Below the pieces are notes generated by a model. That model had not been told where the DNA came from. It ran no database searches and worked only from the letters and a program-made list of their open reading frames with translations. A DNA stretch of 64,000 nucleotides. It comes from Bacillales bacterium UBA6380 (GTDB lineage: Bacteria; Bacillota_I; Bacilli_A; RFN20; CAG-826). This document shows positions 6,371 to 31,453 of this stretch, piece after piece (within the stretch, counting starts at the first letter, position 1; the number at the start of each line of letters is the position of its first letter). A program made the position numbers and the translations under genes. The stretch spans positions 94,888-158,887 of the forward strand of contig DJQS01000011.1 in the NCBI GenBank assembly GCA_002438785.1, given 5' to 3'.

Positions 6371-7477
6371 TTATTTAATTAAATTGTTATCAACACAATA
6401 TTGATAGAATTCTCTTTCACCATCAAAATCGCTATCTTTAGCTTCAGTATATCCAGTATGTGAATAAACCTTATAAAGAATTTCAGATGGTGACATATCT
6501 TGACCTTCAATTTTATCAGTCATTTTAATTGCTTCTTTAAATGCTTTCTTAACTGCCTCTTTTTTAGCATCTTCTAAATTACTTCTTGCTGAAATTGTGT
6601 CATTATAAATTCCATCAGTAATAGCAATGACCTTAGTTTTAGTGAAAGCTTCTTCTTTATTAAAGTATGGATTGTCTTTTTTGATATAACCTTGTGCATA
6701 TCTAACATCGGTAAATCCCCAGAAGCCAGCAATAGTACCATCTTGTGTATTATTAAATGCAGCACCATAATCTGTTTGCTCGACACCAATAATCATAGTC
6801 TTTTTTTCTTCTTCAGTTGCTTTATCATATTTTGTTTGATCAACCATACTCATACCATAATCATTAAGATATTTTAAAGGTCTAAGATAACCAGCACCAC
6901 TAGTAGCACCCATTCTACCAATCTTTAAGCCAGCTAAGTCTTTAACATCAATCGTACCATCATTATTAGTATCTTTATAATATTCATTACGAACTGATAA
7001 TTGTGAAGTATACCAGTTTACATCTACATCGGATTGTTGACCTAAATACTTATAGCCATCAATTTCGCCATTCATTGCTTGCATTTGTTTTGTAACATCA
7101 TCTTTATAATCTTCAACTTGAACTTTATAACCTTTTCTAACTGATGTTAATAAAACTTCAATCTCACCTGGATCTTGTAAAGTAGCTTGAGCATAACCTG
7201 AAGCAGTTAAAAACCCAATATCTAATTGATTACTTAATAAACCTTCAGTTGTAGCATTATAAGAAGTACCGACACTAATTTCATAAGTGTATTCAGGGGT
7301 AATTTCATGTAAGACTGGTTCGAGTCTTTTTGCTAAAGCACCTAAAGTATCTGGATCATTTGATGGAACAAATTGAATTTTAATAACACTAGAATCATCT
7401 TTATTCCCACAACTAGTAGTTGTAGCAACCATCATTAATGCAGCTAAACTAGCACATAAACATAAACTTTTTCTCAT
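6371..7477 (-). CDS. phnD: PhnD-family substrate-binding lipoprotein
   Basis: Signal peptide with lipobox (VATTTSC|G). IKIQFVPSNDP and GFLTASGY are typical of the phosphate/phosphite/phosphonate binding-protein family. Confidence 0.75.
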   Translation of the reverse strand: MRKSLCLCASLAALMMVATTTSCGNKDDSSVIKIQFVPSNDPDTLGALAKRLEPVLHEITPEYTYEISVGTSYNATTEGLLSNQLDIGFLTASGYAQATLQDPGEIEVLLTSVRKGYKVQVEDYKDDVTKQMQAMNGEIDGYKYLGQQSDVDVNWYTSQLSVRNEYYKDTNNDGTIDVKDLAGLKIGRMGATSGAGYLRPLKYLNDYGMSMVDQTKYDKATEEEKKTMIIGVEQTDYGAAFNNTQDGTIAGFWGFTDVRYAQGYIKKDNPYFNKEEAFTKTKVIAITDGIYNDTISARSNLEDAKKEAVKKAFKEAIKMTDKIEGQDMSPSEILYKVYSHTGYTEAKDSDFDGEREFYQYCVDNNLIK

Positions 7478-7542: not shown

Positions 7543-7562
7543 AAAGGGGATACAACCCCTTT
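7543..7562 (-). terminator. intrinsic terminator downstream of the 859-aa gene
   Basis: AAAGGGG-ATACAA-CCCCTTT hairpin. On the minus strand it is followed by a TTTTTTCTTTTCT run. Confidence 0.7.
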
Positions 7563-7740: not shown

Positions 7741-10320
7741 TTAAATATTATACGTCAAATAAAAAATATAATTTTTGTAAATTTTTTGATGGCAAACTAA
7801 TTTATATTTATTTAAGTTTAAGTCAAATTCAAACTTAGCAACAACTGTTTTTGTAACACGATCAATCATTTTTATTCGTTTTAATACTTCATTTTCGTTA
7901 TATTCTCCATTGTATTTATAATTATCTTTAGCATAATTAATAATTGCTTCTTCTAATGTTTCATTTTCTTTACCTTCAATATTATTAAGATCATTTCTTT
8001 CCATATTGAGTCCTAGAAAATATTTCTTTTTAAAAATTAAAGTATTATTAATTATGTTTTCATCATGATTAACAAAATTATCTTGATAAGTATTTAAATT
8101 AGAATCAAACAATTTACAAAATAAGTTTGCATGACGATAAAAATAAATGCTAAAACTATCATTTTCATTATAAATTAATAAAATATCATATAATCCTTTA
8201 GCATCATCACTATTTAGTTTAAATAAGGAATGAATATCTCCATTATCAGTTTTGAAATTAACTAAACTAATATAATCCTTTGCTGAAACAAATAAATCAT
8301 CTACATCATAACTATAAACAGTTCCTGATATAGTCGGATTTATAATAACACTAGAATATTCTTGATTATCGATAGATAAAGTGAAATTGCTATTAAAAAC
8401 ATCACTAAATAAAATCATAAAATAATTAGTTTTACTATTCATAAAATTGACATTTTTAGCTAAATAAATATATGGATTTTTTTCATTTAAATCATAATTA
8501 GAATAGGCATAATTATTATTAACTAAGTTACGTCCATATATCGGTTTTTCAAATCTATAAAAGCCATGGCTAGTATCGCTATTATCTTTAATAAATTCAT
8601 TCATCTTATCAATTGAATTATAAGTTAATTCACCATTATTTTCTTTTAAATCGATATTATTAATAATCTTTGGATCGCCTATTTTTTCAAATCCAAAAAC
8701 AACTGGTGAATTATTAATTTGTGGAAAATTAGAAATTAAATCTCTTGAATCAATAAGTTTTATTTTTTTGCCTTTTAAAGATGGATAACCATTTTCACCA
8801 ATTGCCTCATCTATTATTAATTCATAAAAATCATCATAAATTATAGAAGCATTTTCTCTAGTAAAATTAGCTTCAAATAAATATAAATTATAAAGCCCAT
8901 CACCAAATTCAGCTATTAAACTATTATTTATATATTCAGTATCTAATTGATAAATTTGGTACCAATTGCCTGTCCAACTAGATATTCCCTCTCCATAAGC
9001 TAATTCAACACTTAAACTTTTATATAAATTATCTTTATTTAATTTTAAATAATTGTAATTATAATATCTTACATATTTATTTGGACTATTAGTATTATTA
9101 AAATTACCTGAACCACCATTAATTCTTTCACTTGATGGCATAAAATACTTATAAACATTTCTTTTATTAGAGTCATTAAAGCTTTGAACTAATTTAAAGC
9201 AATCTCCCCCACCACTTTCATAACTACTAGCATTATATGTTTTACCATTAGAAAATAATGGGAATAACCTAATTACACCATTTTCATCAGCATATTTCTC
9301 TAAATCTTCAAAAACATCAAAATAATGTGAAATTTCTTTAGCACTATAAGCTTCAGCAATCGGCTGTTTACTTGAATACGTATCCCAATCATTTGGTAAA
9401 TAACTATAAGGAAAGCTATAACTTCCATCATTATTCTTACTTACATATGTCCAGTTAGTAAATGTAAAGTTAAACCATAATTTATGATCGCCCATTGATG
9501 TAAAAACACTTTGAATAGCTTTAGATAATAAATCAATTGACATTGTATTAGTAACTACTAATTTAATTGGGATATATCTTCCTGTATTTGAGGTATTAGC
9601 TTCATCATAACTAATTAAACTAGTCGTATTATTATTTATATAAGTTTCTCCATAATAATAAGATTCTTCCCAAGCTCCAAAACGATCATTGCTAAATAAA
9701 TCGTGACCATTATATCGCTCATTAGTAGTTTCACTTATTGAACCACTAGTACTACTATTAAAAGTCAATGGATCATTAGGAAGGCCATAGTCTCTATTAT
9801 ATTTGTTATATGAATAATAATAGATATCGTTTGAATTGCCACTCGCAGTTCCTCCAATTTCAAATTTATCATTATATAAAAAATATTTATTTATAAATGA
9901 TTTGTATGCACCATCATAAGAGGCATTATTATCATATTTTCCATTATTTTCACTAAGCTTATAAAGAGCCTTACCTTCATCATTTAATAAAACATTACCA
10001 TTTTCATTTGTTAAAACTTCTTTATATCCAAATTCTTCTTCTGGTAAATGATGAGTTCCGTATGTATTAGTTTCATCGACTAAATATCGACCATATAAAA
10101 ACATATAAGCGGTACTAGGAAAGAAATAAATTGTATACGTTTTTTCTTCTTCATCTTTCCCAAATCGATAATTTTCTTTTATATCATCTATTTTAAAATT
10201 ACTTTCAATTTCATTACTTATCTCCTTTTGTTCATTAAAATACCATGCTGAAATACCAAAAGAAGTAACTCCAATTGTTAATGTTGATAAAATAAGTAAT
10301 AATTTATTAAATATTTTCAT
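7741..10320 (-). CDS. large secreted N/Y-rich protein with a SipW-type leader (locus 1, protein P3)
   Basis: 859-aa ORF. N-terminus MKIFNKLLLILSTLTIGVTSFGISAWYF. The start follows the upstream stop within TAAAATG. I recognise no known domain. Confidence 0.8.
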   Translation of the reverse strand: MKIFNKLLLILSTLTIGVTSFGISAWYFNEQKEISNEIESNFKIDDIKENYRFGKDEEEKTYTIYFFPSTAYMFLYGRYLVDETNTYGTHHLPEEEFGYKEVLTNENGNVLLNDEGKALYKLSENNGKYDNNASYDGAYKSFINKYFLYNDKFEIGGTASGNSNDIYYYSYNKYNRDYGLPNDPLTFNSSTSGSISETTNERYNGHDLFSNDRFGAWEESYYYGETYINNNTTSLISYDEANTSNTGRYIPIKLVVTNTMSIDLLSKAIQSVFTSMGDHKLWFNFTFTNWTYVSKNNDGSYSFPYSYLPNDWDTYSSKQPIAEAYSAKEISHYFDVFEDLEKYADENGVIRLFPLFSNGKTYNASSYESGGGDCFKLVQSFNDSNKRNVYKYFMPSSERINGGSGNFNNTNSPNKYVRYYNYNYLKLNKDNLYKSLSVELAYGEGISSWTGNWYQIYQLDTEYINNSLIAEFGDGLYNLYLFEANFTRENASIIYDDFYELIIDEAIGENGYPSLKGKKIKLIDSRDLISNFPQINNSPVVFGFEKIGDPKIINNIDLKENNGELTYNSIDKMNEFIKDNSDTSHGFYRFEKPIYGRNLVNNNYAYSNYDLNEKNPYIYLAKNVNFMNSKTNYFMILFSDVFNSNFTLSIDNQEYSSVIINPTISGTVYSYDVDDLFVSAKDYISLVNFKTDNGDIHSLFKLNSDDAKGLYDILLIYNENDSFSIYFYRHANLFCKLFDSNLNTYQDNFVNHDENIINNTLIFKKKYFLGLNMERNDLNNIEGKENETLEEAIINYAKDNYKYNGEYNENEVLKRIKMIDRVTKTVVAKFEFDLNLNKYKLVCHQKIYKNYIFYLTYNI

Positions 10321-10321
10321 T

Positions 10322-10984
10322 TTAATTTATCCTAAAAGTTATATTGATATTATGATTTTGATTATTATTTATTAATTTATATAAATTTAAATAAGAATCA
10401 TTTGTATTTGGTTTTACATCCATATTTTTATATTGAAATACTTCATTTAAATTTAATTCATAACGAAAACCACCTAATGGATATGTTTCATTGATATCGA
10501 TTTGTTTAATATATTTTTTAAAATCATATCCATCATTAGTGTTAGCATTATGATATTTTGAAGTAATACTAATAAAGTTATTTAACGAATCAGTCAAATT
10601 TCCATTATCTATTTCAATGAATAATGAAGTTGATAAATAATCTAAAGAATCGTTTTTATCAATAATTTCATATTCAATAATAATTTCTGGGTCATTAATA
10701 TAAATCTCATCATTTGTTTGAAAATCATCATTGTGTCTATAAAACTCAATACCATCAGTTAAATCATCTATTTTGCCAACTCCTTCACTAAAAACTATTA
10801 AGTTAGGACATTTAATTATCCTTAAATCACCAGTTTTAATCAACTCGCTAACTTTAATCGTCACATCACTTTCTTGGCTTTTAATTTCATTCGAATCAAA
10901 AAACCAGCTAGAAAAACCAAAACCTAATAACGTAAGTAAGGATGTTAATGGAACAAAAATATAAATAACTTTACGAAAAATCAT
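10322..10984 (-). CDS. secreted 220-aa protein with a SipW-type leader (locus 1, protein P2; paralogue of P1)
   Basis: N-terminus ...LLTLLGFGFSSWFFDSNE. Its ATG overlaps the peptidase stop (ATGA at 10981-10984). The C-terminal region aligns with P1 (NE-x-F-x-Y ... KP-x-T-x-D-x-Y). Confidence 0.8.
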   Translation of the reverse strand: MIFRKVIYIFVPLTSLLTLLGFGFSSWFFDSNEIKSQESDVTIKVSELIKTGDLRIIKCPNLIVFSEGVGKIDDLTDGIEFYRHNDDFQTNDEIYINDPEIIIEYEIIDKNDSLDYLSTSLFIEIDNGNLTDSLNNFISITSKYHNANTNDGYDFKKYIKQIDINETYPLGGFRYELNLNEVFQYKNMDVKPNTNDSYLNLYKLINNNQNHNINITFRIN

Positions 10985-11973
10985 TTTAAATCACCAATTA
11001 TTTTCTTATTATCGTAAGTATTAGCAACTTCCTTAAATCTAAGTTTATATTCTTTTTCAATTGAACTTTCAGAAATGTTAAACGCTATTAAGAAAATAAA
11101 GCAACTACTCAAAGCAACTATTCCTGCACTACTTTTTAAATAAGTTATCAAAACACCTAAACCAAAATTATTAAAACCAGTGTATCTACCAATTATATCT
11201 TCATAATGAACAGCAATTTCATATTTTGCACTACTAGTATTAGCATCACCTTGGAAAGTATAATAATTTTTATTTTCTGCACTATTATAATTTATTCTAA
11301 CTAAGCGATGAACGATAATTTCACCTTCATCATTTTTAAAAGCCACAACATCATATAAATTTAATTTTTTTTCATCTATTTTTTGAATAGAAATTAAACT
11401 GAATCTATTTATTTGATTATTTAAATTATTTTCTTTGATATAAGTGTTTTTCTCATTTGCTTCTTCCATTGAACCAGTTTTAATTACAATATAAGTTTTA
11501 TCCCCAATAAAAAATGCATCATTTTGTACTTTAAAACTTATAATAAAACTAAATAGTAAAGTGAAAATAAATAAAAATGTGAAAGAAAAAATGTAAGATA
11601 TTTTCTTTCTTTTTTTATCTTTCATATCTTCAATATTTAAAACTTTTGCTAATCTTCTTTTATCCTTATCTTCAATATCAGGATGATAATATAAATATGT
11701 TTCAACATTTCTTATTTTAGAAATACATTTAATTTCATTATTTGTTGAATTAACTTTATCAGTACTTATATCAAATTTTTCACCTTTAAAAAGATGTTTA
11801 TATTTAATTATCAATTCTTTTAATAATTTTTCATCTTCATGACCATATTTTATATGCTTCTTTTTATATGAAGCATATAAAATAAATAGAATTGTAAAAG
11901 TTATTGCTAAACCAATAATTGTCAATAAAGCAACATAAAAAACTATTTCAATTAATTGATTGTACCCTTCCAT
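10981..11973 (-). CDS. SipW/ER-type (S26B-like) signal peptidase I with an extra N-terminal TM and charged domain (SipW1)
   Basis: Boxes IKTGSME (catalytic Ser), IIVHRLV (His) and TFQGDAN. TM segments flank the catalytic domain on both sides. GAGG lies upstream of the ATG. Confidence 0.7.
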   Translation of the reverse strand: MEGYNQLIEIVFYVALLTIIGLAITFTILFILYASYKKKHIKYGHEDEKLLKELIIKYKHLFKGEKFDISTDKVNSTNNEIKCISKIRNVETYLYYHPDIEDKDKRRLAKVLNIEDMKDKKRKKISYIFSFTFLFIFTLLFSFIISFKVQNDAFFIGDKTYIVIKTGSMEEANEKNTYIKENNLNNQINRFSLISIQKIDEKKLNLYDVVAFKNDEGEIIVHRLVRINYNSAENKNYYTFQGDANTSSAKYEIAVHYEDIIGRYTGFNNFGLGVLITYLKSSAGIVALSSCFIFLIAFNISESSIEKEYKLRFKEVANTYDNKKIIGDLK

Positions 11974-11992
11974 TATTAACCTCTATAAAATA

Positions 11993-12679
11993 TTATTTAG
12001 CCTTGAATTCAAAAGAATATGCAAAATTTATTAAATTTCCACTTAATTTACTTATACCATTACTATAATCATCTTTAGTCTTTGGCTTACTTGTATATAT
12101 AAAACCTTCATTTACTAAAGTTTCTGAATTAGTATCAACATGGAATGTGAATGTTGAAGTAACATCATTAGTATAATCGTTAGTAATTTCTACTGTTTTT
12201 GTAAATGTTCTAACAAAATCACCAGTAGTATTATCTGTTTTAATATTACTACTAGTTACATTTGTATCATTAAATGAATCTTTAAAATTAATATATTTAG
12301 CTAAATCGCTTTTGATTGTAACTATCGCAGTAAATGTTCCAACTAATCCAGCATTATAAACATTTTCGATATTATCTTTAGTTAAAGTATAAGTAGCACC
12401 TATTGTTTTAACATAATCAGTTCCATTTTTAATACTAATACCAGCATCTAAATTCTCTTTGTTTCTATAACCACCTTGATCTAATATCAAATTATATTTA
12501 GTTGTATCATCAGCAGTAATTGTCCCTAGTTGACTAGCTAATGGCTCTACTATAACGCTAATATCTGAGTTAGCCCCAGCAACTGTATCATTACCAAAAT
12601 ACCAAGCACTAAAGCCACTACCAATAATTGCTAATCCACCAACAGTGGATAATAAAGAAATAAATAATTTTCTTTTCAT
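11993..12679 (-). CDS. secreted beta-rich 228-aa protein with a SipW-type leader (locus 1, protein P1; candidate major subunit)
   Basis: N-terminus MKRKLFISLLSTVGGLAIIGSGFSAWYFGND resembles the TasA leader (...GGGTWA|AFND). First gene of the operon, with a GGGGGA RBS. Confidence 0.8.
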   Translation of the reverse strand: MKRKLFISLLSTVGGLAIIGSGFSAWYFGNDTVAGANSDISVIVEPLASQLGTITADDTTKYNLILDQGGYRNKENLDAGISIKNGTDYVKTIGATYTLTKDNIENVYNAGLVGTFTAIVTIKSDLAKYINFKDSFNDTNVTSSNIKTDNTTGDFVRTFTKTVEITNDYTNDVTSTFTFHVDTNSETLVNEGFIYTSKPKTKDDYSNGISKLSGNLINFAYSFEFKAK

Positions 12680-12752
12680 AATTAAATCCCCCTATATAGT
12701 CAATTTATTTTTGCAAAATACATATCATCATTCAATGCTAATCAAATTATTA

Positions 12753-12780
12753 GTAACAAATATTCACAATTGCTTCACAA
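12753..12780. promoter_or_regulatory. three helically phased direct repeats, candidate OmpR-family response-regulator site
   Basis: Plus strand reads GTAACAAATATTCACAATTGCTTCACAA. TAACAA, TTCACAA and TTCACAA start at 12754, 12763 and 12774 (10-11 bp period). This is 75-100 nt upstream of the P1 start. Confidence 0.35.
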
Positions 12781-12937
12781 ATTATAATATTAAAAATTCT
12801 TAAATTTTTTATTAACCAATTACATTTAATTAACTTTTACATAATTATTTGTGCTTAATTTAACATATTATAAAAAAATTTCATACCTTTTATTAAATTA
12901 ATTAAAAAATTATAAGAATATGACTTACATATTATTT

Positions 12938-12956
12938 TTCACAAATAGTTACAAAT
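12938..12956. promoter_or_regulatory. second phased direct repeat of the same motif
   Basis: TTCACAAATAG-TTACAAAT with a one-turn period, 5 nt from the (TA)11 tract. Confidence 0.3.
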
Positions 12957-12961
12957 TATCC

Positions 12962-12983
12962 TATATATATATATATATATATA
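12962..12983. repeat. (TA)11 dinucleotide microsatellite in a divergent intergenic region
   Basis: Eleven uninterrupted TA units counted directly. Confidence 0.95.
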
Positions 12984-13240
12984 AAAGATAAAATTTACTA
13001 ATAAATTGTTTTAATGTCATATATATTATTTAAAGTCAATTTATGTCATCAATTAATAAAAATGAAAGTTTTAAAATAATTTCAAAAATATTTTATTAAT
13101 TAACTATTTATAATATTAAAAAATCAAAAATTAATTCACATTTATAAAATAAAAATATAGCAATTTTTAATTATTTTAATATAGTAGTAAATAAGAATTA
13201 TTATGTAGTAATTTATTTATTCAATTTTTAATGTTAAAAT

Positions 13241-13897
13241 ATGTCCATGAAAAATATATTATTAATAGAAGATGATGAACAAATATTAAAAGCAAATATG
13301 CTTTATTTAAAAGATAAATTTAATGTAACTTCTGCTACTTCAATTAAAGAAGCATTAAATGCTTTAAATGATAAAATTGATTTAATAGTTCTTGATTTAA
13401 TATTACCTGATGGAAATGGTGAAGAAATATTTAGAAAAATTTCTAATTCTATTCCAATTATAATTTTAAGTACGATTGATGATTATTCTTTTGTATGTAA
13501 ATATTTAGAAAATGGGGCCCTAGATTATTTAATTAAGCCTTGTAAGCCTTCAACTCTTTGCGCTCATATTGAAGCACGACTCAAAATAAATAATATTCTA
13601 ATCTATAAAGATATGAAAATTAATTTAAATTCACGTGAAGTAAGTATTAAAAATATTGATCTTCCATTAACAACAAGTGAATTTAATATTCTATTATTTT
13701 TAGCTCAACATGAAGGAGTTTGCTTTACACCAGACAAAATTTATCAAGAAGTTTGGCAACAAGAAACATTAAACCTAAGAACAAGTGTCTCAAGACATAT
13801 TTCTAGTTTAAGAAAAAAAATAAACGATATCTCTGATTTTAAATATATTTTTACTGAATTTGCAAAAGGATATTATTTTATATCAAATGACAACTAA
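13241..13897 (+). CDS. OmpR/PhoB-family response regulator
   Basis: Receiver domain (LLIEDDE, LIVLDLILPDGNG) plus a winged-helix output domain (LTTSEFNILLFL...). The start could be ATG 13247. Confidence 0.88.
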   Translation: MSMKNILLIEDDEQILKANMLYLKDKFNVTSATSIKEALNALNDKIDLIVLDLILPDGNGEEIFRKISNSIPIIILSTIDDYSFVCKYLENGALDYLIKPCKPSTLCAHIEARLKINNILIYKDMKINLNSREVSIKNIDLPLTTSEFNILLFLAQHEGVCFTPDKIYQEVWQQETLNLRTSVSRHISSLRKKINDISDFKYIFTEFAKGYYFISNDN

Positions 13898-15893
13898 TTA
13901 TAAGATTGATAAAATTGAGAAAATAACTTTTATCTCTTTTCTATTTGCTATTGTATTTTCAATATTATTCCCATATTTAATAATGTATAGAAATACATCT
14001 ACTTTTGCATCAAATAGTCATGAAATCGACAAAAATTCTTATGTAAGTTACTCTTTAAATGATTGTGCACCCAATAAATATAATTTAATAAGCAAGGTAA
14101 ATTATGTCGCTAATAGTTTTACTTCGGTTAATAAAAATGATATTGGAGAGATAAAGAACCTAAATGAAAATATCGCTAAATATGGCACAATATATGTCAT
14201 TTTAGATGAATTTAGTTTTGAAAATGAAATAGATTATCAAAATACATATAAAAGTTATGAGCATTATATAAATAAAGTTAATAATATTGAATTTGCTTTA
14301 TTTATTCCTTCTTTTTTTGATGTTTCATATATTTATTTCAATGATTCTTTAATTGAAAGTAATGGTTCTTTTGAAAAATACGATTCTGCTAAAAGAGATT
14401 TTACTAAATGCGAAGGTATTATTAGTTCAAAATCATTTAAGACCTCTATTGTCAAATTCTCAACTCAAATAAATTATGAAAATCAAGATAAAATCAATCA
14501 AAATATTATAACTATTCACTATCGACTTAATGATAAATTAATTATAGGTAATTTTTCTTTTTTATTTGGAAGATATAATTTAATTAGTCATTATAAAATA
14601 TTTATACAAATACAATTGATTGTTGGCTTAATAATAGCATGTATTTCTTTTGCAACATTAATTCCATTTGTGTTTATTATAAAACGTAATAAAAATAACT
14701 ATTTATTAATATCAATTATTACCTTGTTTTTTGTTTACGTATTGAGCTTATTTTTCTTAAAGTATGATTCTTCATTTGTTCCGAATTTATGGATTTACAT
14801 ATGTTTATCGTGCCTATCGATAATGCCTTTTACTTTAAGCTCTTTTCGTTTAAATAAATATAAATTAATTAATTTTTTATTTGTAATAGCTAATTCTATA
14901 TTAATCATTTTAAATTTTATATTTTTATCAATTAATATGGATATTTATAAGATAACAAATTTTATTTTTTTATTAATTTCAGTTTCGGAAATACTTATTA
15001 GTTTATATTTAACTATAAAATCACAAAAAACCATTGATTTTATAGCTATTTATATGAATATATTTATCGTTATTTCCTTTTTTAATTCTCATAACATATA
15101 TTCATTATTATCAATTAATTTTTTATATGTTATTTTATTTGCTACTTTAATATTCCTATTCGTATATTATAATTTAATAATCACTTTATATCGTAATAAA
15201 TTATCTTTAGCTAAAGAAATTAATCTTGATGAAACAATAGATAACTCTAATGATATGCAAAAAATATTAAGAGTTTTGTTTCATGATTTAAAAAATGAAT
15301 TAATTCTAGAAAGAAATTCTTTAGAATTATTAAAAGCAAATTCTACTATTAAAGAAAAATATTCTATAATTAACAATTTATTAGAGCATAATTCTCATCA
15401 ATTAAATTTAATTAAAGAAGGCAGTGAGTATGCTCATAAAACATTTAATCCTATTAAAATAGAAAGTATAAACATTGAAAATCTTATTAATAATATTTAT
15501 AAACAATTATTCGATGATGCTAAAGCTGTAGGTATTAATTTTTATCTAAAGAACATAAGGGAAGGTAATGTTATTAGTAGTCAATTTATTTTAGAAAGTT
15601 CTATAAAAAATATCATTTTCAATGCTATAGAACATAGTAAATGTAAAAATTTAAAAATTAAAACGTCAAAAACAACCTACTCCTATATCATAAAAATCAT
15701 TGACGATGGTGTCGGAATTGAGGATATTAAAAATATTTTTGCTCCTTATAAAAAGAAAGATAAAAATAATGAAGGTTTAGGTTTATATTTAATTAAGTCT
15801 CAATTAAATAATGCCAATGGTCGAATTGAATTAAAAAATACTAAAAGAGGAACAACTTTCAAAATTTTCTTATTAATTGATAATAGTTATTAA
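13887..15893 (+). CDS. sensor histidine kinase with a large extracytoplasmic domain and about 7 TM segments (7TMR-DISM-like architecture)
   Basis: H-box LFHDLKNEL. ATPase boxes DDGVGI and GLGLYL. One N-terminal TM, a ~200-aa external region, then about seven hydrophobic segments. ATG 13887 overlaps the regulator stop by 11 nt. The track start is TTG. Confidence 0.8.
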   Translation: MTTNYKIDKIEKITFISFLFAIVFSILFPYLIMYRNTSTFASNSHEIDKNSYVSYSLNDCAPNKYNLISKVNYVANSFTSVNKNDIGEIKNLNENIAKYGTIYVILDEFSFENEIDYQNTYKSYEHYINKVNNIEFALFIPSFFDVSYIYFNDSLIESNGSFEKYDSAKRDFTKCEGIISSKSFKTSIVKFSTQINYENQDKINQNIITIHYRLNDKLIIGNFSFLFGRYNLISHYKIFIQIQLIVGLIIACISFATLIPFVFIIKRNKNNYLLISIITLFFVYVLSLFFLKYDSSFVPNLWIYICLSCLSIMPFTLSSFRLNKYKLINFLFVIANSILIILNFIFLSINMDIYKITNFIFLLISVSEILISLYLTIKSQKTIDFIAIYMNIFIVISFFNSHNIYSLLSINFLYVILFATLIFLFVYYNLIITLYRNKLSLAKEINLDETIDNSNDMQKILRVLFHDLKNELILERNSLELLKANSTIKEKYSIINNLLEHNSHQLNLIKEGSEYAHKTFNPIKIESINIENLINNIYKQLFDDAKAVGINFYLKNIREGNVISSQFILESSIKNIIFNAIEHSKCKNLKIKTSKTTYSYIIKIIDDGVGIEDIKNIFAPYKKKDKNNEGLGLYLIKSQLNNANGRIELKNTKRGTTFKIFLLIDNSY

Positions 15894-15979: not shown

Positions 15980-17755
15980 TTATTTTAAATCAGGGTATTT
16001 TTCTCGATGTGCATTATAGTGAGTATGTAACAATTTATGTGCTAAAGGCGAACCATATTCTCCTAAATATGATTTATATAGTTTTATAATATCTTTATTT
16101 AAATGAGATCTCCTTATTTCTTTCTTCTTATCTAAATCATATAAAACTTTAGCCCTTTTACTTACATATGTATTTAAGATATCGTCATCTTCATTCTCTA
16201 AAAATACTGGATAAACATAAGGCTGTCCTCCACCATTGATGCAACCTCCTGGACACCCCATTACTTCAATAAAATCATATTTATTTTCATGATTTTTTAT
16301 CTTTTCAAGTAAAATTTTAGCATTTTTCATTCCACTACAAACTGCTATATGGTATTTTGATCCTAAAATAGTTATTTCAGCTTCTTTAATACCCTCAAAT
16401 CCTCTTACTGGCGTAAAATCAATTGGCTCCATTTCTTGATTAGTTAAAATATAATAAGCGGTTCTTATTGCAGCTTCCATTACGCCACCAGTTGCTCCAA
16501 AAATATCAGCTGCACCAGTAGTTTCTCCTATTAAATCATCGTCAAAATTTTCATTAGGAAGTTTATTCCATATAATACCACTTCTTCTAATTAAACTCGC
16601 TAATTCTCTCGTAGTTAAAACTATATCAACATCTTTAATTCCATCAACAGAATTTTCTGGTCTTTCTTTTTCATATTTTTTAGCTGTACAAGGCATAATA
16701 GAAACAACACAAATTTTACTACGATCAATATTTTTTCTTTCTGCATAATAAGACTTTATAATAGCTCCAACCATTTCATGTGGAGATTTGCAAGTTGATA
16801 AGTGACCCAATAATTCTGGGTAATAATATTCAATATAATTTACCCATCCTGGTGAACATGAAGTAATCATCGGCATAGGTTGATGAGTAATTACACGTTG
16901 TACAAATTCGTTTGCTTCTTCTGTAATTGTTAAATCAGCACCAAAATTTGTATCAAAAACCTTGCTAAACCCAAGTCTTTTTAAGGCAGCAACCATTTTT
17001 CCTTCTGAATTGGTACCTATTTTTTCACCAAATTCTTCACCTAAAGCAGCTCTTACTGCAGGGGCAGTTTGAACAACGACAAATTTCCCTTCTTTAAAAG
17101 CTTTATCTAATTTATCTATCTCACTATGTTCCATTAGTGCTCCAGTTGGACAAACTAATGTACATTGTCCACATTGAATACAAGGAACATTATTAAAAGA
17201 TCTATTTTCACTAGGTCCAACAAAAGTATTAAAACCTCTTTTTTCAAATCCCAAAATTCCAATTCCTTGAATTTCCTTACACGCTGATATGCATCTTCCA
17301 CACAAAATGCATTTCGATGTATCTCTAATTAATCCTGGAGCTAAATCATCATATGTAGTTTTAGTCTTTTCCCCTAAATATTTATCTGGTTCTGCACCTA
17401 CTCTTTTAGAAACTTCAAGGAGTTCACATTTCCCATTTTTTCTACATGTTTGACAAGATAATGAATGATTAGAAAGTAATAATTCAACACTTGTTCTTCT
17501 AGCAATTACAGCATCAGGATCACTAATAAAAATTTTTAAACCATCTCTAATAGGATAAGCACATGATGGAACAAGTCTTCTTTCACCTTCTACTTTAACT
17601 AAGCAAACACGACAACTAGCCACCGAACACATTCCATTTTTCCATGTACAAAGATTTGGAATATTATATCCACAAATTTTAGCAGCTTCTAATATAGTTA
17701 AATTATCATCTACTAAATAAGGTTTATTTTCAAAATATACAGTAATTTTTGCCAT
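15980..17755 (-). CDS. hydA: [FeFe] hydrogenase catalytic subunit, multi-cluster HydA type
   Basis: N-terminal 2Fe-2S and 4Fe-4S Cys clusters. H-cluster motifs MPCTAKKYE and EVMGCPGGCINGGGQP are present. The L1 motif reads TSCSPGW. Confidence 0.9.
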   Translation of the reverse strand: MAKITVYFENKPYLVDDNLTILEAAKICGYNIPNLCTWKNGMCSVASCRVCLVKVEGERRLVPSCAYPIRDGLKIFISDPDAVIARRTSVELLLSNHSLSCQTCRKNGKCELLEVSKRVGAEPDKYLGEKTKTTYDDLAPGLIRDTSKCILCGRCISACKEIQGIGILGFEKRGFNTFVGPSENRSFNNVPCIQCGQCTLVCPTGALMEHSEIDKLDKAFKEGKFVVVQTAPAVRAALGEEFGEKIGTNSEGKMVAALKRLGFSKVFDTNFGADLTITEEANEFVQRVITHQPMPMITSCSPGWVNYIEYYYPELLGHLSTCKSPHEMVGAIIKSYYAERKNIDRSKICVVSIMPCTAKKYEKERPENSVDGIKDVDIVLTTRELASLIRRSGIIWNKLPNENFDDDLIGETTGAADIFGATGGVMEAAIRTAYYILTNQEMEPIDFTPVRGFEGIKEAEITILGSKYHIAVCSGMKNAKILLEKIKNHENKYDFIEVMGCPGGCINGGGQPYVYPVFLENEDDDILNTYVSKRAKVLYDLDKKKEIRRSHLNKDIIKLYKSYLGEYGSPLAHKLLHTHYNAHREKYPDLK

Positions 17756-17766
17756 ATTAGTACCTC

Positions 17767-19644
17767 CTATTCTTTATAAATGGCATTAAATTTGCAGGCA
17801 CTAATACAAGTTCCGCATTTAATACACTTATTTTGATCAATTACAAATGGCTCTTTACCAACTACACCACTAATTGCATTAGGAGGACAATTACGAGCGC
17901 ATAAAGAACACTTTTTACATTTATCTTTATCAATATGATAAGAGATTAAATTTTTACATACACCAGCATCACATTTTTTATCATTTATATGTCGAAGATA
18001 AACTTCTTTAAATTTGTGTAAAGTCGATAATACTGGGTTTGGTGCTGTTTGTCCAAGCCCACATAAAGATCCAACTTGAATGGAATGAGCTAAAGTTTCT
18101 AATTTTTCGATATCTGAAATTTCACCCTTTCCATCAGTAATTCTATTAATTATTTCAAGTAACCTTTTAGTTCCAATCCTACATTGCGAGCATTTTCCAC
18201 ATGACTCATCACAAATAAATTCAAGATAAAATTTGGCAACATCAACCATACAATTATCTTCATCCATTACGATTGCTCCACCACTTCCCATCATTGAACC
18301 TTTTTCAATTAAATTATCAAAGTCAATTGGAGTATCTAGCTCAGATAAAGTAAGACATCCACCACTTGGCCCACCAGTTTGTATTGCTTGAAATCTTTTA
18401 TTATTTGGAATTCCTCCACCAATATCAAAAACTAATTCCCTAAGAGTCGTACCCATAGGAACTTCAACTAAACCGACATTTTTAACTTTACCACCTAAAG
18501 CAAAAACTTTAGTACCTGTCGAATTTTTTGTTCCGATTTTTTTAAATTCTTTTGCTCCAACTCTTAATATATAAGGAATATTAGCAAGAGTCTCAACATT
18601 ATTTATAATAGTTGGTTTTCCCCATAAACCTTTAATTGCAGGAAATGGAGGACGTGGTCTAGGCATACCTCTTTTTCCTTCTATTGAATTTAATAAAGCA
18701 GTTTCTTCTCCACAAACAAAAGCACCAGCTCCATAACGAATATGACAATTAAAATCAAAGCCACTTCCTAAAATATTTTTCCCTAAAAGTCCAACTTCTT
18801 TTAATTCTTCAATTGCTTTTGATAATCTATTTACAGCTATAGGATATTCTGCACGAATATAAAAATATCCATCACTAGCACCAATTGCATACCCTGCAAT
18901 CATCATTCCTTCAATTACAGAAATAGGATTACCTTCTAAAATCGATCGATCCATAAAGGCACCTGGATCGCCTTCGTCACCATTACAAACAACATATTTT
19001 ATTTTAGATTCTTGGTCATAAGCAAATTTCCATTTTTTACCAGTTAAAAATCCGCCGCCGCCACGACCTCTTAATCCAGATTCTAAAATTTCATTTATAA
19101 CTTCTAATCTAGTTTTATGTAAGGCATTAATAAAACCTGTAAAAGCATCATATCCAAATGATTCGTGTAAATCTTCTGGATTAATCGTTCCACAACCATG
19201 AAGAGCAATCCTTAATTGTTTTTTATAAAATGTAATATCATCTTGTCTTTCAACCTTTTTATTAATAATTGGGTCTAGATATAATAAATCATTAATGCAT
19301 TTACCTTCAATTATGTCTTCATTAATAATTCTTTCACAGTCTTTTACTTTAACAGCGTGATATAAGCGGTCTTCTGGATAAATTTTAACAAATGGACCTT
19401 GTGAACAAAATCCAAAACATCCAACAACATTTACAGTTACTTTGTCTTCAAGTTTCTTTTCTTTAATTAATTTTTCTAATTGATTAATAATCTCTTGCGA
19501 ATCACTTGATAAACATCCAGTTCCTCCACAAACAACAATATGTCTTTTATTATCTTTACCATTAAATTTTTCTTCTAAACATTTCGAGCAATGTTTTAAT
19601 TTATTTAATAATTCTTCTTCATTCTTTATTTTTTTAATACTCAT
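17767..19644 (-). CDS. hydB: NuoF-like flavoprotein subunit of an NAD(P)H-linked/bifurcating hydrogenase
   Basis: GLRGRGGGGF (FMN/NADH site). Thioredoxin-like 2Fe-2S N-terminal domain and C-terminal 2x[4Fe-4S] ferredoxin motifs. Start moved to MSIKKIK (ATG 19642-19644), which follows AAGGAG. Confidence 0.9.
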   Translation of the reverse strand: MSIKKIKNEEELLNKLKHCSKCLEEKFNGKDNKRHIVVCGGTGCLSSDSQEIINQLEKLIKEKKLEDKVTVNVVGCFGFCSQGPFVKIYPEDRLYHAVKVKDCERIINEDIIEGKCINDLLYLDPIINKKVERQDDITFYKKQLRIALHGCGTINPEDLHESFGYDAFTGFINALHKTRLEVINEILESGLRGRGGGGFLTGKKWKFAYDQESKIKYVVCNGDEGDPGAFMDRSILEGNPISVIEGMMIAGYAIGASDGYFYIRAEYPIAVNRLSKAIEELKEVGLLGKNILGSGFDFNCHIRYGAGAFVCGEETALLNSIEGKRGMPRPRPPFPAIKGLWGKPTIINNVETLANIPYILRVGAKEFKKIGTKNSTGTKVFALGGKVKNVGLVEVPMGTTLRELVFDIGGGIPNNKRFQAIQTGGPSGGCLTLSELDTPIDFDNLIEKGSMMGSGGAIVMDEDNCMVDVAKFYLEFICDESCGKCSQCRIGTKRLLEIINRITDGKGEISDIEKLETLAHSIQVGSLCGLGQTAPNPVLSTLHKFKEVYLRHINDKKCDAGVCKNLISYHIDKDKCKKCSLCARNCPPNAISGVVGKEPFVIDQNKCIKCGTCISACKFNAIYKE

Positions 19645-19645
19645 T

Positions 19646-20134
19646 TTAAGCTCCTTCTTTATCAAGTTTTCGATAATCATCAATTATTTTCTTAACTGAT
19701 GATAAAGTTACTTTTGGAAAAACTTTTCCATTAATTGAAATCGCAGGAGCAATACCACACGCACCAATGCAACGCAATGCATCTAAGGTAAATAAACCAT
19801 CATCACTAGTTTGACCAGGTTTAATTTTTAAAAGTTCAGAAAATTTATCTAAAATATTTTGACCACCTTTTACATAACAAGCAGTTCCTAAACATACACC
19901 AATAACATATCTACCTTTAGGCGTTAAACTAAAAAATGAATAAAATGTTACAACACCATAAATTTCACTTACTGGAATGTCTAATTCATCAGATATTATC
20001 TCTTGTACTTCTAGTGGAATATAGCCATATTCTTTTTGAGTTTCCGATAACACTAACATTAAGGGTGATGGTTCATTTTTATATTTAGCACAAATATTTT
20101 TAATAATGTCCACAGCTTCTTTTCTTAAATGCAT
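19646..20134 (-). CDS. hydC: NuoE-like 2Fe-2S subunit of the hydrogenase
   Basis: NuoE-type Cys pattern (GVCLGTACYVKG ... CIGACGIAP). Start moved to MHLRKEA (ATG 20132-20134), which follows AGGAGA. Confidence 0.88.
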   Translation of the reverse strand: MHLRKEAVDIIKNICAKYKNEPSPLMLVLSETQKEYGYIPLEVQEIISDELDIPVSEIYGVVTFYSFFSLTPKGRYVIGVCLGTACYVKGGQNILDKFSELLKIKPGQTSDDGLFTLDALRCIGACGIAPAISINGKVFPKVTLSSVKKIIDDYRKLDKEGA

Positions 20135-20157
20135 ATAATTTCTCCTAAACATTTAAA

Positions 20158-27783: not shown

Positions 27784-28743
27784 TTATTTAAGTTCTATTA
27801 CTTTAACTTTAGGTAATTTATTAATCTCTTCTTGATTAATTCGATCTTTAACGCTATTAAATTGACTTTCATATAATTTAACTTTTTTATTATCAAATAT
27901 ATCTAAAATAATTAAAGAGAGTAAGGTATATGTAATGCTAACTAAGCCAACATAACTTCCACTAAAAGAAAAGATAATTCCTAATGGATAATTATTATAA
28001 CCAGTATAATGATACAAAATGTCACTACTTTTAACTAAATAATAATCACTTGAACTATTAGCATCACCTCTAAAAGTATAATAAATTTCATTATTTACTT
28101 CTAGCTTAGCAATTACTCTATGAACTATTAGATTATTTTTATTATTTTTATAAGCATATATATCAAATAATTTAATATCATCATTATTATTAACTTTTTC
28201 TAATGAAATTAATGAATACGTTTTTATTTGATCATTTAAATTCATATCTTTAAGATATGAATTTTCTTCATTTTTATAACTCATTGATCCACTATTTATA
28301 GTTACATAAGTTTTATTATTTATTTCATATAAATTATTAGATAACTTTGAATAAACTGTAAAAGAGAATATAAAAATAAAAATTATAGAAAATATAATAT
28401 CAAAAATAATTTTTAATATTATATTTCTTTTTTTATTTTTAACCTTTAAATCATATCTTTTAATATATAAAGGCTTATAATCATTATTTAATGGTGGATT
28501 AGATGCATCAATTGTTAAATTAATTGATTTCTTAGAATTAATTAGCCTATATTCAATAGGTCGATTATCTTTATATTCCTTAATAGACATATTCATATCA
28601 TTTTTATATGTCTTATCTAATTTATTATTCTTTATTTTTTCTTTAAATAAAGAATAATTATCTAAAATAATTAAAAGAATAATTATAAAAATAATTGTTA
28701 ATAATAAAACATTAAGTAATATAGATTGAGTTTGTTTAGTCAT
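27784..28743 (-). CDS. SipW/ER-type signal peptidase I paralogue with the same extended architecture (SipW2)
   Basis: INSGSMS, LIVHRVI and TFRGDAN boxes. TM1, charged region, TM2, catalytic domain and C-terminal TM are colinear with SipW1. Confidence 0.7.
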   Translation of the reverse strand: MTKQTQSILLNVLLLTIIFIIILLIILDNYSLFKEKIKNNKLDKTYKNDMNMSIKEYKDNRPIEYRLINSKKSINLTIDASNPPLNNDYKPLYIKRYDLKVKNKKRNIILKIIFDIIFSIIFIFIFSFTVYSKLSNNLYEINNKTYVTINSGSMSYKNEENSYLKDMNLNDQIKTYSLISLEKVNNNDDIKLFDIYAYKNNKNNLIVHRVIAKLEVNNEIYYTFRGDANSSSDYYLVKSSDILYHYTGYNNYPLGIIFSFSGSYVGLVSITYTLLSLIILDIFDNKKVKLYESQFNSVKDRINQEEINKLPKVKVIELK

Positions 28744-28783
28744 ATTTAAAATTATATTAAAATAATTAAAGGATTAATAGATT

Positions 28784-28927
28784 TTATTTATTATTATTAA
28801 ATCCTATTTCATACTCTAAGTTATTACTATAACTATTATTTGAATTAGTTTTAGTAATAACCCAAGCAGAAATACCTACTCCAATTAATCCTGATAATAA
28901 TATTAAAGTTAATAAGAGTTTTTTCAT
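28784..28927 (-). CDS. unannotated 47-aa ORF with a SipW-type leader plus a single short beta-strand (P5)
   Basis: My own translation is MKKLLLTLILLSGLIGVGISAWVITKTNSNNSYSNNLEYEIGFNNNK*. The leader closely matches that of P3. It starts 7 nt after the 839-aa gene stop. No clear SD. Confidence 0.55.
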   Translation of the reverse strand: MKKLLLTLILLSGLIGVGISAWVITKTNSNNSYSNNLEYEIGFNNNK

Positions 28928-28933
28928 AAGGTG

Positions 28934-31453
28934 TCATTTATATAATTTAATACCAATTATAACAGCTCTTTTTTTATTTGTCGAAATTTCAATAGTTTTA
29001 GTAGGATTGAATGTATAAGCTAAAGTCTTCGACAATGTTTTTCCATCAGTATTTTTATCCATAGACAATGTCACACCATTTACAGTAACATCACAAGTAT
29101 CATTTTTCCATGCATAACCAATTAATTCAATTTTAGAAACTTCTTCTTTAGTTTCAAAAGATAAATTTCCAGCTTTTTTGCTTGTTCCAAGCCTAATACC
29201 ACCTTTAGTATTTGAAGTAAAACCATTTTCAGCATTTATTAAAGAAGTAATCATGCCACTATCGTTAGTAGAAGATTGTAATGCAACATCTAGAAAATTT
29301 TCTTTGCTTATAGATTGCGAATAAATATCTCCACTTATTGTTTCGCTTTCAGCTTCAAATTTATATTCACCAAGCAAAGTATAAGAAGTACCCTCTTCAA
29401 CTTTTAAAAGAAGTTTATTACTAATAACATCATTATATTTAGCAGTTATCTCAGTTTCCCCAACACTTAAAGCATGAATTATTCCATCATTAGAAATGGT
29501 AGCAACACTAGGATTAGATGAACTCCATTCCAAAGTAACATTTATTTGACTTGGATTTGTAGTAACGGTGACTTTTCTATCAGCATCACCTAATTTCATT
29601 GTCATTTCATTTTCAAGCGTAATTGAAGTAGGGACAACATCAACACTTTCATAACTTATAATTACACCATAATAATTATTATATTTACCTTTACTAATTG
29701 TACCAAATACTTGTATTTTTATCTTATAACCAACTTTCATTGCAGGAGTAGGATCATCACCTTTTTTAAAATCATAGCTATATTTGTACTCAGTATAACT
29801 TAATGATTTATTATCATTATTTTCAATACGTGATCCATAAATTACTAATTTATTATTATTTGAATCAACTAAAGTAAATCTACCATATTCAGCTTTTTCA
29901 ATTGAATAAACAGTACCTTCAACTTCATAAAGGTGGGTAGAATCATAAGTAGTATCGGATAAAACTTTTTCAATAGTAGATTGAATAGGTTTACTTAAAT
30001 CAATAACTTCATAGCCAATTACATAAGCTCCTTCTTGTTCTACTTTAAATGAATAATCCTCTAAATAAACTTTATCACCACCATTTAAAGTGTAATAAAC
30101 TTTACTTAATTCATAACCTTCATTTGCTTTAACAGTAAAACTTATAGATGAACCTAATTGATATTTACTATCTTCTTTAGCATCGGTTATAGTAACTTCT
30201 GCACCAGTTAATGTATCATCAATATTGATAGTAACAGTCTTAACTGGTTCTTCTTTCTTACTAACTTCTAATTTAAAAACATTTTCACCTTCTAATAATG
30301 TAAAGTATTCTTCAGTTAGTTTAGTTTCGTTTAAATAAGCTACATAACTAAATCCATCATCAACTGTAACTTTATAAGTAACCTTACTACCGACATTATA
30401 TTCTTCATTTAATTTAAGCTCAGTACCTTTATCATCAAGAAATTTAACTGTAGCGTGTTCAACATCGTTATATAAAATGCTACCTTTTTTAACTTCATCA
30501 ACTAATTCATATTTAAATTTATAATTTACACCTTCTAAGAAATTGTAACTTCCTTCGTAAGTATAACCTTTATTTGTAGCTCTAGTTGTAGAAGCTACTT
30601 TCTTCATACTAACTTTATCTTCATTTATATAAATTACATCATCTTTAAGTAATTTTCCTTCATCTAAAGTTAAAGTTAAACTATGTTCTCCAGTAACTAA
30701 TTTATTATCTTTTAATCCTTCAATAGTTAAACTAGATCCACTAATTTCAGGTAAAGTAATTTCACCTGTTAATTTTTCAACAGGTTTAACTTCACTACTT
30801 CCACCAAGTTGAATAGTATATCTAAAAGCAACACCATCAAAAGCTTTAACTAAACTTTCAAAATTTTTAACTTGCTCTTCTTTAGCTAAATCTTTCCAAA
30901 CAATTTGTGGATTATTTCCTAATTTTTCACTCCAAGAGAAAGTAAATGTATAAGGATATCCATCATTTTCATATTGAGCATCAAGCCAAGTTTTATAATT
31001 AATTGTGCTATCAATAGGCAAAGCAATATAACTTAATAAATTCTCTAACCTAGTTCCTTCTAAAGCTTTCTTTGTTTCTTTATCAATAGCCTCAGTTTTA
31101 ATAACTAAATTAGGTCGATATTGTTCACTAACTAAATCCCAGTACTTATCTTTTAAAGCTTGATAAGGAGAAACATTTAATCCGCCATCTTTTTTAACAC
31201 CTTTAATTAAATAAGATTTAGATAAATTTTCTTCACCATAATATTCTTTAGGTGCATCAAATTTAATTTTTTCATTAGTATCTTTTTCTTTAACTTCCAA
31301 ATCAAAGTCGCTATTTCCAACTGTAGTGATTTCAAAAGGAATTTCACCATCTTTTGAAGTAAAGCCTCCATTAACTGTCCAAGTAGCATAAGCAGTTCCG
31401 ATTAAACTTCCGACACTAAGAACACCTATAAGTAATTTACCAACCTTTTTCAT
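28934..31453 (-). CDS. large secreted multi-domain surface protein with a SipW-type leader and a Big_2 domain (P4)
   Basis: N-terminus MKKVGKLLIGVLSVGSLIGTAYATWTV. GGGAGG RBS. Contains repeated Ig-like segments, an OB-like segment (aa ~508-602) and a Big_2-like segment (SSSNPSVATISNDGIIHALSVGETEITA). Confidence 0.85.
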   Translation of the reverse strand: MKKVGKLLIGVLSVGSLIGTAYATWTVNGGFTSKDGEIPFEITTVGNSDFDLEVKEKDTNEKIKFDAPKEYYGEENLSKSYLIKGVKKDGGLNVSPYQALKDKYWDLVSEQYRPNLVIKTEAIDKETKKALEGTRLENLLSYIALPIDSTINYKTWLDAQYENDGYPYTFTFSWSEKLGNNPQIVWKDLAKEEQVKNFESLVKAFDGVAFRYTIQLGGSSEVKPVEKLTGEITLPEISGSSLTIEGLKDNKLVTGEHSLTLTLDEGKLLKDDVIYINEDKVSMKKVASTTRATNKGYTYEGSYNFLEGVNYKFKYELVDEVKKGSILYNDVEHATVKFLDDKGTELKLNEEYNVGSKVTYKVTVDDGFSYVAYLNETKLTEEYFTLLEGENVFKLEVSKKEEPVKTVTINIDDTLTGAEVTITDAKEDSKYQLGSSISFTVKANEGYELSKVYYTLNGGDKVYLEDYSFKVEQEGAYVIGYEVIDLSKPIQSTIEKVLSDTTYDSTHLYEVEGTVYSIEKAEYGRFTLVDSNNNKLVIYGSRIENNDNKSLSYTEYKYSYDFKKGDDPTPAMKVGYKIKIQVFGTISKGKYNNYYGVIISYESVDVVPTSITLENEMTMKLGDADRKVTVTTNPSQINVTLEWSSSNPSVATISNDGIIHALSVGETEITAKYNDVISNKLLLKVEEGTSYTLLGEYKFEAESETISGDIYSQSISKENFLDVALQSSTNDSGMITSLINAENGFTSNTKGGIRLGTSKKAGNLSFETKEEVSKIELIGYAWKNDTCDVTVNGVTLSMDKNTDGKTLSKTLAYTFNPTKTIEISTNKKRAVIIGIKLYK

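Follow-up and report, generated by a model that had tools for sequence, protein, structure and literature searches.

Organization of the operon

We analysed a 64,000-nucleotide (nt) stretch of contig DJQS01000011.1 from Bacillales bacterium UBA6380 (positions 94,888 to 158,887), called as a whole the window, and detected at 7741-12679 an operon encoding a SipW/SEC11-type signal peptidase together with three proteins, P1, P2 and P3, that carry similar N-terminal leaders. A preliminary description of this DNA had proposed four packed minus-strand open reading frames (ORFs) closed by a single terminator, and the ORF list and the hairpin scan agreed with it exactly in coordinates, junctions and terminator. 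The features, with lengths in amino acids (aa), are as follows.

11993-12679, minus strand: P1, 228-aa ORF, exported, first gene of the operon
10981-11973, minus strand: peptidase, 330-aa ORF
10322-10984, minus strand: P2, 220-aa ORF
7741-10320, minus strand: P3, 859-aa ORF, exported
7543-7562, minus strand: intrinsic terminator-like hairpin at the operon end, AAAGGGG-TTGTAT-CCCCTTT followed by a T-run

The gap between the P1 and peptidase genes is a 19-nt spacer with AGAGG. According to the ORF coordinates, the peptidase and P2 genes meet in an ATGA start/stop overlap (10981-10984), and P2 and P3 in a TAAAATG junction (10318-10324). The hairpin (7562-7543 on the minus strand) was the sole site found in the scanned region, with three overlapping calls against 0.6 expected.

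The peptidase belongs to a divergent ER-type subfamily

Judged by its profile matches and catalytic motifs, the 330-aa protein is a genuine, divergent signal peptidase of the endoplasmic reticulum (ER)/archaeal type (S26B, SipW/SEC11-type). The peptidase family alignment of 36 homologues matched Bacillus SipW in hhalign (99%, E 3.6e-18, SipW residues 2-146), the reference being five SipW sequences extracted from tapA-sipW-tasA loci of 11 Bacillus species, and the family profile matched human SEC11C/SEC11A with E ~4e-10; the homology spans the complete catalytic domain. This S26-family profile check upheld the SipW/ER-type identity proposed earlier.

The Ser, His and GDAN boxes named in the preliminary description are present, and their residues are invariant in the 36 homologues. 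The Ser box KTGSMEE (S168, nt 11470-11472) aligns to SipW SGSMEP; the His box IVHRLV (H222, nt 11308-11310) and the Asp box QGDAN (D243, nt 11245-11247) align to THRIV and KGDNN in SipW, and to IVHRV and KGDNN in SEC11A/C.

Scores against curated models were lower. The NCBIfam SipW model NF046067 gave E 6e-11 (42.2 bits, cut-off 190) and the archaeal-type signal peptidase I model TIGR02228 gave E 3e-8 (33.8 bits, cut-off 51.85); the window peptidase had no match in a Pfam search, and one homologue (L004) reached 20 bits against Pfam Peptidase_S26 (cut-off 22.9). By these three sub-threshold scores the protein is of a divergent subfamily and not a SipW orthologue. Compared with SipW, which has two transmembrane (TM) segments, the peptidase has three (14-32, 128-146 and 282-300), the extra one being N-terminal. 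Two further additions are a Lys-rich, presumably cytoplasmic loop, in which Gly44 and Asp47 (YGHED) are invariant, and 15 residues inserted behind the Ser box, where N176 and Y178 are invariant and Q187 near-invariant. In some homologues the C-terminus is prolonged on the cytoplasmic side by 300-400 aa that contain an internal duplication (702 aa in total in L004).

Leader motif and predicted cleavage site

The operon peptidase is predicted to cleave the leaders of the proteins encoded beside it.

12608-12679, minus strand: P1 leader, residues 1-24, MKRKLFISLLSTVGGLAIIGSGFS
10910-10984, minus strand: P2 leader, residues 1-25
10249-10320, minus strand: P3 leader

The leaders end in ...IIGSGFSAWYF (P1), ...LLGFGFSSWFF (P2) and ...VTSFGISAWYF (P3). 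The common ending proposed earlier, G-x-G-[FI]-S-[AS]-W-[YF]-F, holds for P1 and P2 and has to be relaxed for P3, which has S-F-G. The leaders are built of a K/R n-region, a hydrophobic stretch of ~18 residues, a small-aromatic-small group and x-Trp-x-Phe; Lys-rich n-regions had been ascribed to all three proteins, which does not apply to P2, where this region has only R4/K5. In the P1 family (50 sequences) G20, G22, F23, S24, W26 and F28 are invariant, far above chance. The conserved Gly and Trp come after the hydrophobic stretch, so these are not type IV pilin (class III) leaders.

We tabulated 52 non-redundant leaders, gathered without any condition on the tabulated positions, with the invariant Trp as position 0.

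W-4: G/A/T in 52/52 leaders
W-3: F/Y/L/I
W-2: S/A/C/G in 52/52 leaders
W-1: variable (A, S, T, L, Y, M, V, I, F)

Type I signal peptidases follow the -1/-3 rule, with small residues at these two positions. Small residues at W-2 and W-4 together with a variable W-1 fit this rule for a cut between W-2 and W-1, and the most likely cut sites are S24|A25 in P1, S25|S26 in P2 and S24|A25 in P3. The predicted mature N-terminus of P1 is AWYFGND, with an aromatic residue at mature position 2, and the corresponding semi-tryptic N-terminal peptide would be AWYFGNDTVAGANSDISVIVEPLASQLGTITADDTTK. The same register gives canonical sites in distant modules (AYA|TW, VYA|TW and VFA|TW). Two other positions are weaker candidates. 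A cut after Gly22, our first model, fails where W-4 is Val, as seen in distant-module leaders, and a cut directly before the Trp would break the -1 rule in about one-fifth of the leaders and place Phe at -3.

In hhalign comparison of the P1 family with TasA the leader alone aligned (P1 residues 1-25 to TasA 3-27, E 9.5e-5), and the likeness of the P1-family leader to the TasA/camelysin N-terminus is weak. Pfam PF12389 (Peptidase_M73) likewise gave weak matches to 4 of the 50 P1-family members (best E 0.026); the one inspected, in P0005, covered residues 1-39 alone. E. coli LepB is reported to cut poorly when an aromatic residue is in the second position after the cut (P2'), which is the reason stated for the need of TasA for SipW (PMC10269814).

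Conservation of the module in gut Bacilli

A pattern scan with one genome per species yielded 36 loci, which were then searched with a hidden Markov model of each family. The loci come from gut metagenome-assembled genomes (MAGs) labelled Bacilli, Mollicutes or Firmicutes. The preliminary description had suggested looking for P1/P2 homologues together with SipW-like genes, and a peptidase-family gene adjoins P1/P2-family genes in 33/33 loci with enough flank, the other three being contig-end fragments. Wherever the flank sufficed, a locus contained the peptidase, two or more small paralogues and one P3-type protein of 720-1170 aa. The order P1-peptidase-P2-P3 was found in about 22 loci; others have the order P1-P2-large protein-peptidase, or 3-5 tandem small paralogues (up to 4-5 in L021 and L025). 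The large protein of the other type (P3b) is remotely homologous to P3 (hhalign 99.7%, E 9e-27).

Clustering of neighbouring ORFs in 39 loci and the window (40 sequences) left three conserved families only.

Small subunits (P1/P2): 39/40 sequences, 87 genes
Peptidase: 37/40 sequences
P3 or P3b: 25 + 12 of 40 sequences

No ATPase, sortase, chaperone, prepilin peptidase or secretion component was conserved in this clustering. In 593 kb of sequence, a peptidase gene was located within 6 kb for 85 of the 86 leader-bearing N-termini; as the motif had served to select the loci, this linkage test is biased. We conclude that a dedicated peptidase and its cognate substrates very probably form one module.

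Among the loci with the module, L007, L010, L014, L015, L018 and L035 are from 'cleanbin' MAG records with titles such as Prevotella, Bacteroides uniformis and Alistipes; these titles almost certainly reflect mislabelled bins.

The cargo proteins P1, P2 and P3

The P1 family comprises ~50 clusters at 90% identity, labelled at most 'hypothetical protein [Mollicutes bacterium]'. An exhaustive profile search extended it to 746 representatives at 50% identity, of which 429 scored E<=1e-10. The invariant residues of the mature domain are G70 (LDQGG block), G80, Y97, Y195, K198 and P199. The P3 family comprises 128 homologue clusters, among which one has a precomputed Pfam domain and two are named 'hypothetical protein' by their source.

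P1 and P2 are, by profile comparison, true paralogues. Their alignments, built independently from related loci, matched over 184 columns with the leader and motif removed (hhalign 97.5%, E 6e-12), in agreement with the paralogy proposed earlier, including the C-terminal Y..KP...Y block. P1 and P3 have only residues 1-55 in common, that is, the leader and ~30 further residues (hhalign 94.7%, E 6e-8).

No family was detected for P1, P2 or P3 in Pfam and NCBIfam, and scans of the 50 P1-family members with both gave noise and the weak leader-confined PF12389 match only. Sequence searches of the PDB with the P1 family profile and the P3 sequence found no match, and hhalign showed no relation of the P1 family to TapA. 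The preliminary description had recognised no TasA, CalY or camelysin sequence in the cargo, and with Pfam, the PDB profile search and hhalign beyond the leader all negative we reach the same view.

The AlphaFold2 model of P1 has a mean predicted local distance difference test score (pLDDT) of 81.7; residues 44-228 form a beta-rich domain above 90, and residues 1-43 are below 50. The P3 model (pLDDT 82.6, predicted template-modelling score 0.78) has a mixed alpha/beta, mostly beta fold, with low confidence at residues 30-57. Foldseek found no match for P3 in the PDB at E<=1e-3 and none in BFVD. A match of P1 to an unrelated well-known family would have spoken against the earlier proposal; Foldseek gave no such match, and its top 50 PDB matches for P1 include no TasA and no pilin entry. 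Mature P1, P2 and P3 are acidic (isoelectric point 4.4-4.8) and nearly Cys-free. They lack a C-terminal anchor, and with no LPXTG-type sorting anchor in the three proteins and no sortase among the conserved neighbours the features of a sortase pilus were not found. By analogy with the fibre systems discussed below, P1 is a candidate major subunit, P2 a candidate minor subunit and P3 a candidate tip, adhesin or anchor.

A second module and distant relatives of the peptidase

We detected a second, smaller peptidase-plus-cargo module at 27784-31453 on the minus strand, in which both cargo genes lie immediately upstream of a peptidase paralogue.

27784-28743, minus strand: peptidase paralogue, 319 aa, 39% identity over the catalytic half, same three-TM layout
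28784-28927, minus strand: 47-aa ORF with leader ...GVGISAWVI and ~27 mature residues, AWVITKTNSNNSYSNNLEYEIGFNNNK
28934-31453, minus strand: 839-aa Big_2-domain protein with leader ...LIGTAYATWTV
31729-32424, minus strand: XRE-type helix-turn-helix protein with several hydrophobic segments towards its C-terminus, close to the second module on its upstream side

The 47-aa ORF could be a donor-strand-only mini-subunit (a primer or cap) or the remnant of a decayed gene, and the XRE-type protein is possibly a membrane-bound regulator. A scan of genome contigs for relatives of the second peptidase found none.

Two distant members of the peptidase family also sit between small proteins with related leaders (...GGVYATWTY and ...GFASWVI). 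In a Clostridiales MAG (L134, 6278-9366) a 421-aa distant peptidase lies between a 210-aa protein (leader ...IGGVYATWTY) and a 367-aa protein (leader ...SLGVFATWKY). The group is directly preceded by spoIIGA/sigE-like genes and followed by a sigG-like gene, a setting that suggests a sporulation-linked variant. The Big_2 module and the Clostridiales modules show that the peptidase subfamily serves varied cargo.

Regulation and genomic background

The genes divergent from P1 encode a two-component system, separated from the operon by an AT-rich region.

12680-13240: divergent intergenic region, AT-rich, 561 nt, containing GGGGGA as ribosome-binding site of P1 as well as an (AT)11 run and promoter-like hexamers
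13241-13897, plus strand: OmpR-type response regulator, divergent (Pfam Response_reg and Trans_reg_C)
13860-15893, plus strand: multi-TM histidine kinase, divergent (sole Pfam match HATPase_c)

Promoter-like hexamers in 12680-13240 were matched no better than expected from shuffled sequence. The (AT)11 dinucleotide run (~12962-12986), between P1 and the response-regulator gene, could be a slippage-prone spacer affecting expression. The histidine kinase ORF has a TTG start and overlaps the response-regulator gene by 38 nt. It is possible that this divergent pair regulates the operon; such a pair also lies beside the module in L001, L002, L005 and the distant L023. The two-component system was rejected as a conserved part of the module, being found in only 5 of the 39 family-hit sequences (window included), in many of which the upstream flanks are short.

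The window has ~25% G+C and reads well with code 11; an Rfam scan of it found no RNA family. The ribosomal protein L2 of the window reaches no more than 85% identity with that of uncultured gut 'Bacilli bacterium' MAGs and ~72% with that of Erysipelotrichaceae and Acholeplasmataceae MAGs. On the minus strand at 15980-20152 lies a cluster resembling an electron-bifurcating [FeFe]-hydrogenase. Its products are a HydA-like protein (591 aa, with Fe-S domains), a NuoF-like one (638 aa) and a third of 168 aa. The cluster adjoins the module in L001 and L002 too and points to an anaerobic fermentative lifestyle.

Proposed mechanism and its alternatives

We lean towards the view that the operon is a self-contained export-and-processing module with a donor-strand fibre mechanism. 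P1, P2 and P3 would be made with a TasA-like Sec leader and inserted by Sec, and the membrane-bound Ser/His/Asp peptidase of the operon would cut their leaders, tolerating aromatic residues just past the cut better than ordinary LepB-type enzymes do. After the cut, two residues before the invariant Trp, the new N-terminus would be aromatic (A-W-Y-F...), and behind it would come a flexible extension, ~20-30 residues long, that P1, P2 and P3 have in common and that has low confidence in both the P1 and P3 models. By analogy with TasA, BsaA and AbpX, this extension may slot into the beta-sandwich of an adjacent P1 or P2 and serve there as donor strand. P1 would then build the extracellular fibre or matrix, with P2 as a minor initiating or terminating subunit and P3 at one fibre end as a large tip or anchor. 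Our data show what the peptidase is, the leader common to the three proteins, the paralogy and the strict co-occurrence; within this scheme we infer the cleavage site, the Sec insertion, the polymerisation and the subunit roles. Of the functions considered, a donor-strand fibre is the likeliest, at slightly below an even chance, a reading based on the analogy to the TasA superfamily and on the common flexible N-terminal extension. It is a rather doubtful, bolder proposal that the module represents a new chaperone- and ATPase-free filament class of small-genome gut Bacilli, in which a new beta-sandwich pilin would have its aromatic donor strand released by a three-TM peptidase and a 98-kDa P3 as its cap, a sister invention to TasA/AbpX and not a divergent member.

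Several observations weigh against the proposed fibre mechanism. The peptidase scores far below the cut-off of the SipW model, and its extra TM segment and Lys-rich loop are absent from SipW. NCBIfam models for the SipW-cognate signal peptide (TIGR04088) or related ones matched 0/50 P1-family members at E<=10, the presence of TIGR04088 in the release being unverified. Cuts after Gly22 or after Ala25 are possible, weaker alternatives to the proposed site. Foldseek gave no PDB match for P1 at E<=1e-3 (best E 6.6e-3, template-modelling score ~0.2), and no sequence or fold likeness of mature P1 and P2 to TasA or PDB entries was found, a comparison in which other TasA-superfamily proteins were not taken individually. 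Every non-lipoprotein signal-bearing ORF of the window has the motif, so the leader style could be general to the lineage; the 64-kb window holds no other non-lipoprotein secreted protein for leader comparison.

The same module could be dedicated to a complex of P1, P2 and P3, secreted or at the cell surface, that forms no filament, such as a heteromeric adhesin, a coat or a nutrient-binding assembly, with the aromatic N-terminus serving peptidase recognition alone. This is unlikely in our estimate. It agrees with the lack of a fold match to any donor-strand pilin, with the confident monomer model of P3 as a large, globular, mostly beta protein, and with the weak top Foldseek matches of P1, which are adhesin-type beta-sandwiches (Fap1, SadP/Fhb) and are not significant. 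Against it weigh the ~30 residues past the leader that P1, P2 and P3 have in common and that have no confident intramolecular partner, and the presence of several tandem small paralogues in one locus (4-5 in L021 and L025), which is typical of pilin-like systems. Moreover, all the characterised loci consulted here that combine a dedicated S26B peptidase with small beta-sandwich paralogues make donor-strand polymers (PMC9674648, PMC11580942, bioRxiv 10.64898/2026.01.04.697558).

We find it improbable that the leaders are uncleaved membrane anchors, with G-F-S-A-W-Y-F at the membrane interface and a peptidase homologue that processes something else or acts as a scaffold. The AlphaFold model of P3 does show residues 2-29, motif included, as one continuous helix (pLDDT 70-89), the three proteins have no other anchor, and many hosts are titled 'Mollicutes', a label whose lineages may be without a wall to retain proteins. 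Nevertheless, none of the three catalytic residues (Ser, His and Asp) varies, positions -1 and -3 of the proposed site are occupied by small residues without exception, the peptidase is strictly linked to leader-bearing genes, and the leader resembles the cleaved TasA leader. A housekeeping signal peptidase located by chance among genes for secreted proteins, with the motif as the general leader style of the lineage, is very improbable. It would explain the motif on all non-lipoprotein signal-bearing ORFs of the 64-kb window. Against it, the window has two paralogous peptidases, each beside its own motif-bearing genes, and the leader-bearing neighbours of the second argue against a housekeeping role. 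Gene order and content are also kept in ~37 loci despite differing wider neighbourhoods, 85/86 leader-bearing N-termini of the related-locus DNA lie close to a peptidase gene, as described above, isolated genes with the motif are lacking from the flanks of related loci, and the lipoprotein encoded at 6371-7477 has a normal lipobox leader.

Comparison with characterised fibre systems

As far as genomics shows, the module matches the known fibre systems in its parts list and logic. In B. subtilis, SipW cuts TasA and TapA, and residues 28-38 of TasA form the donor strand, which is also found in TapA (PMC9674648). The operon resembles tapA-sipW-tasA in having a dedicated ER-type peptidase, homologous to SipW, within the substrate operon; relative to the predicted cut the leaders have an aromatic residue at -2 and at P2', as does TasA (GTWA|AF), and the N-terminal extension common to P1, P2 and P3 parallels the strand common to TasA and TapA. 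Unlike tapA-sipW-tasA, the module has mature cargo without a TasA match, no TapA homologue and an additional third substrate of 859 aa.

The sipW-bsaA-bsaB-bsaC operon of C. perfringens encodes a peptidase, a major and a minor matrix protein, which are small paralogues, and a single large protein that is secreted (PMC11580942). It likewise has four genes for the same kinds of parts, with signal sequences on all cargo, in a different gene order. BsaA and BsaB are detectable TasA-family proteins and BsaC has a VWA domain, unlike P1, P2 and P3, which have no Pfam domain. BsaA has an N-E-K isopeptide lock; P1 has an invariant K198 and near-invariant N190 and D67.

Besides a major subunit and one or more minor ones, the AbpX loci encode a tip protein of variable structure and a dedicated type I signal peptidase (SPase I) of the TIGR02228 type, and the AbpX-type donor strand has a conserved aromatic residue, W2, at mature position 2 (bioRxiv 10.64898/2026.01.04.697558). 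AbpX, AbpA, Tafi and thread are TasA-superfamily loci (bioRxiv 10.64898/2026.01.04.697558; PMC9245690; PMC9715654), and the operon is similar to them in its parts list, its acidic subunits and, sometimes, nearby histidine kinases. The AbpX SPase I differs in having ten TM helices and a DUF5305 partner, against three TM segments and no conserved accessory gene here, and the acidic residue at mature position 4 of AbpX is missing. P1 is not placed in the TasA superfamily by sequence or fold. A literature search on SipW together with Mollicutes found nothing relevant. The candidate system had been called undescribed. This holds for its lineage, its subfamily of peptidases and the families of its cargo; the architecture of an SPase I with major, minor and tip proteins has already been recognised.

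Significance

Our analysis defines two unannotated protein families (P1/P2 and P3) with confident predicted folds that have no solved-structure match, and a distinct SipW-like peptidase subfamily with a recognisable substrate motif. The combination of a dedicated ER-type peptidase, leaders with an aromatic P2' residue and small beta-sandwich paralogues reaches past recognisably TasA-like proteins. To our knowledge, these gut Bacilli are known from metagenomes alone, and their surfaces and their attachment to the host or to other microbes are undescribed. This four-part module, compact, strongly conserved and accompanied by no other conserved machinery, is a candidate for the main structure on their surface.

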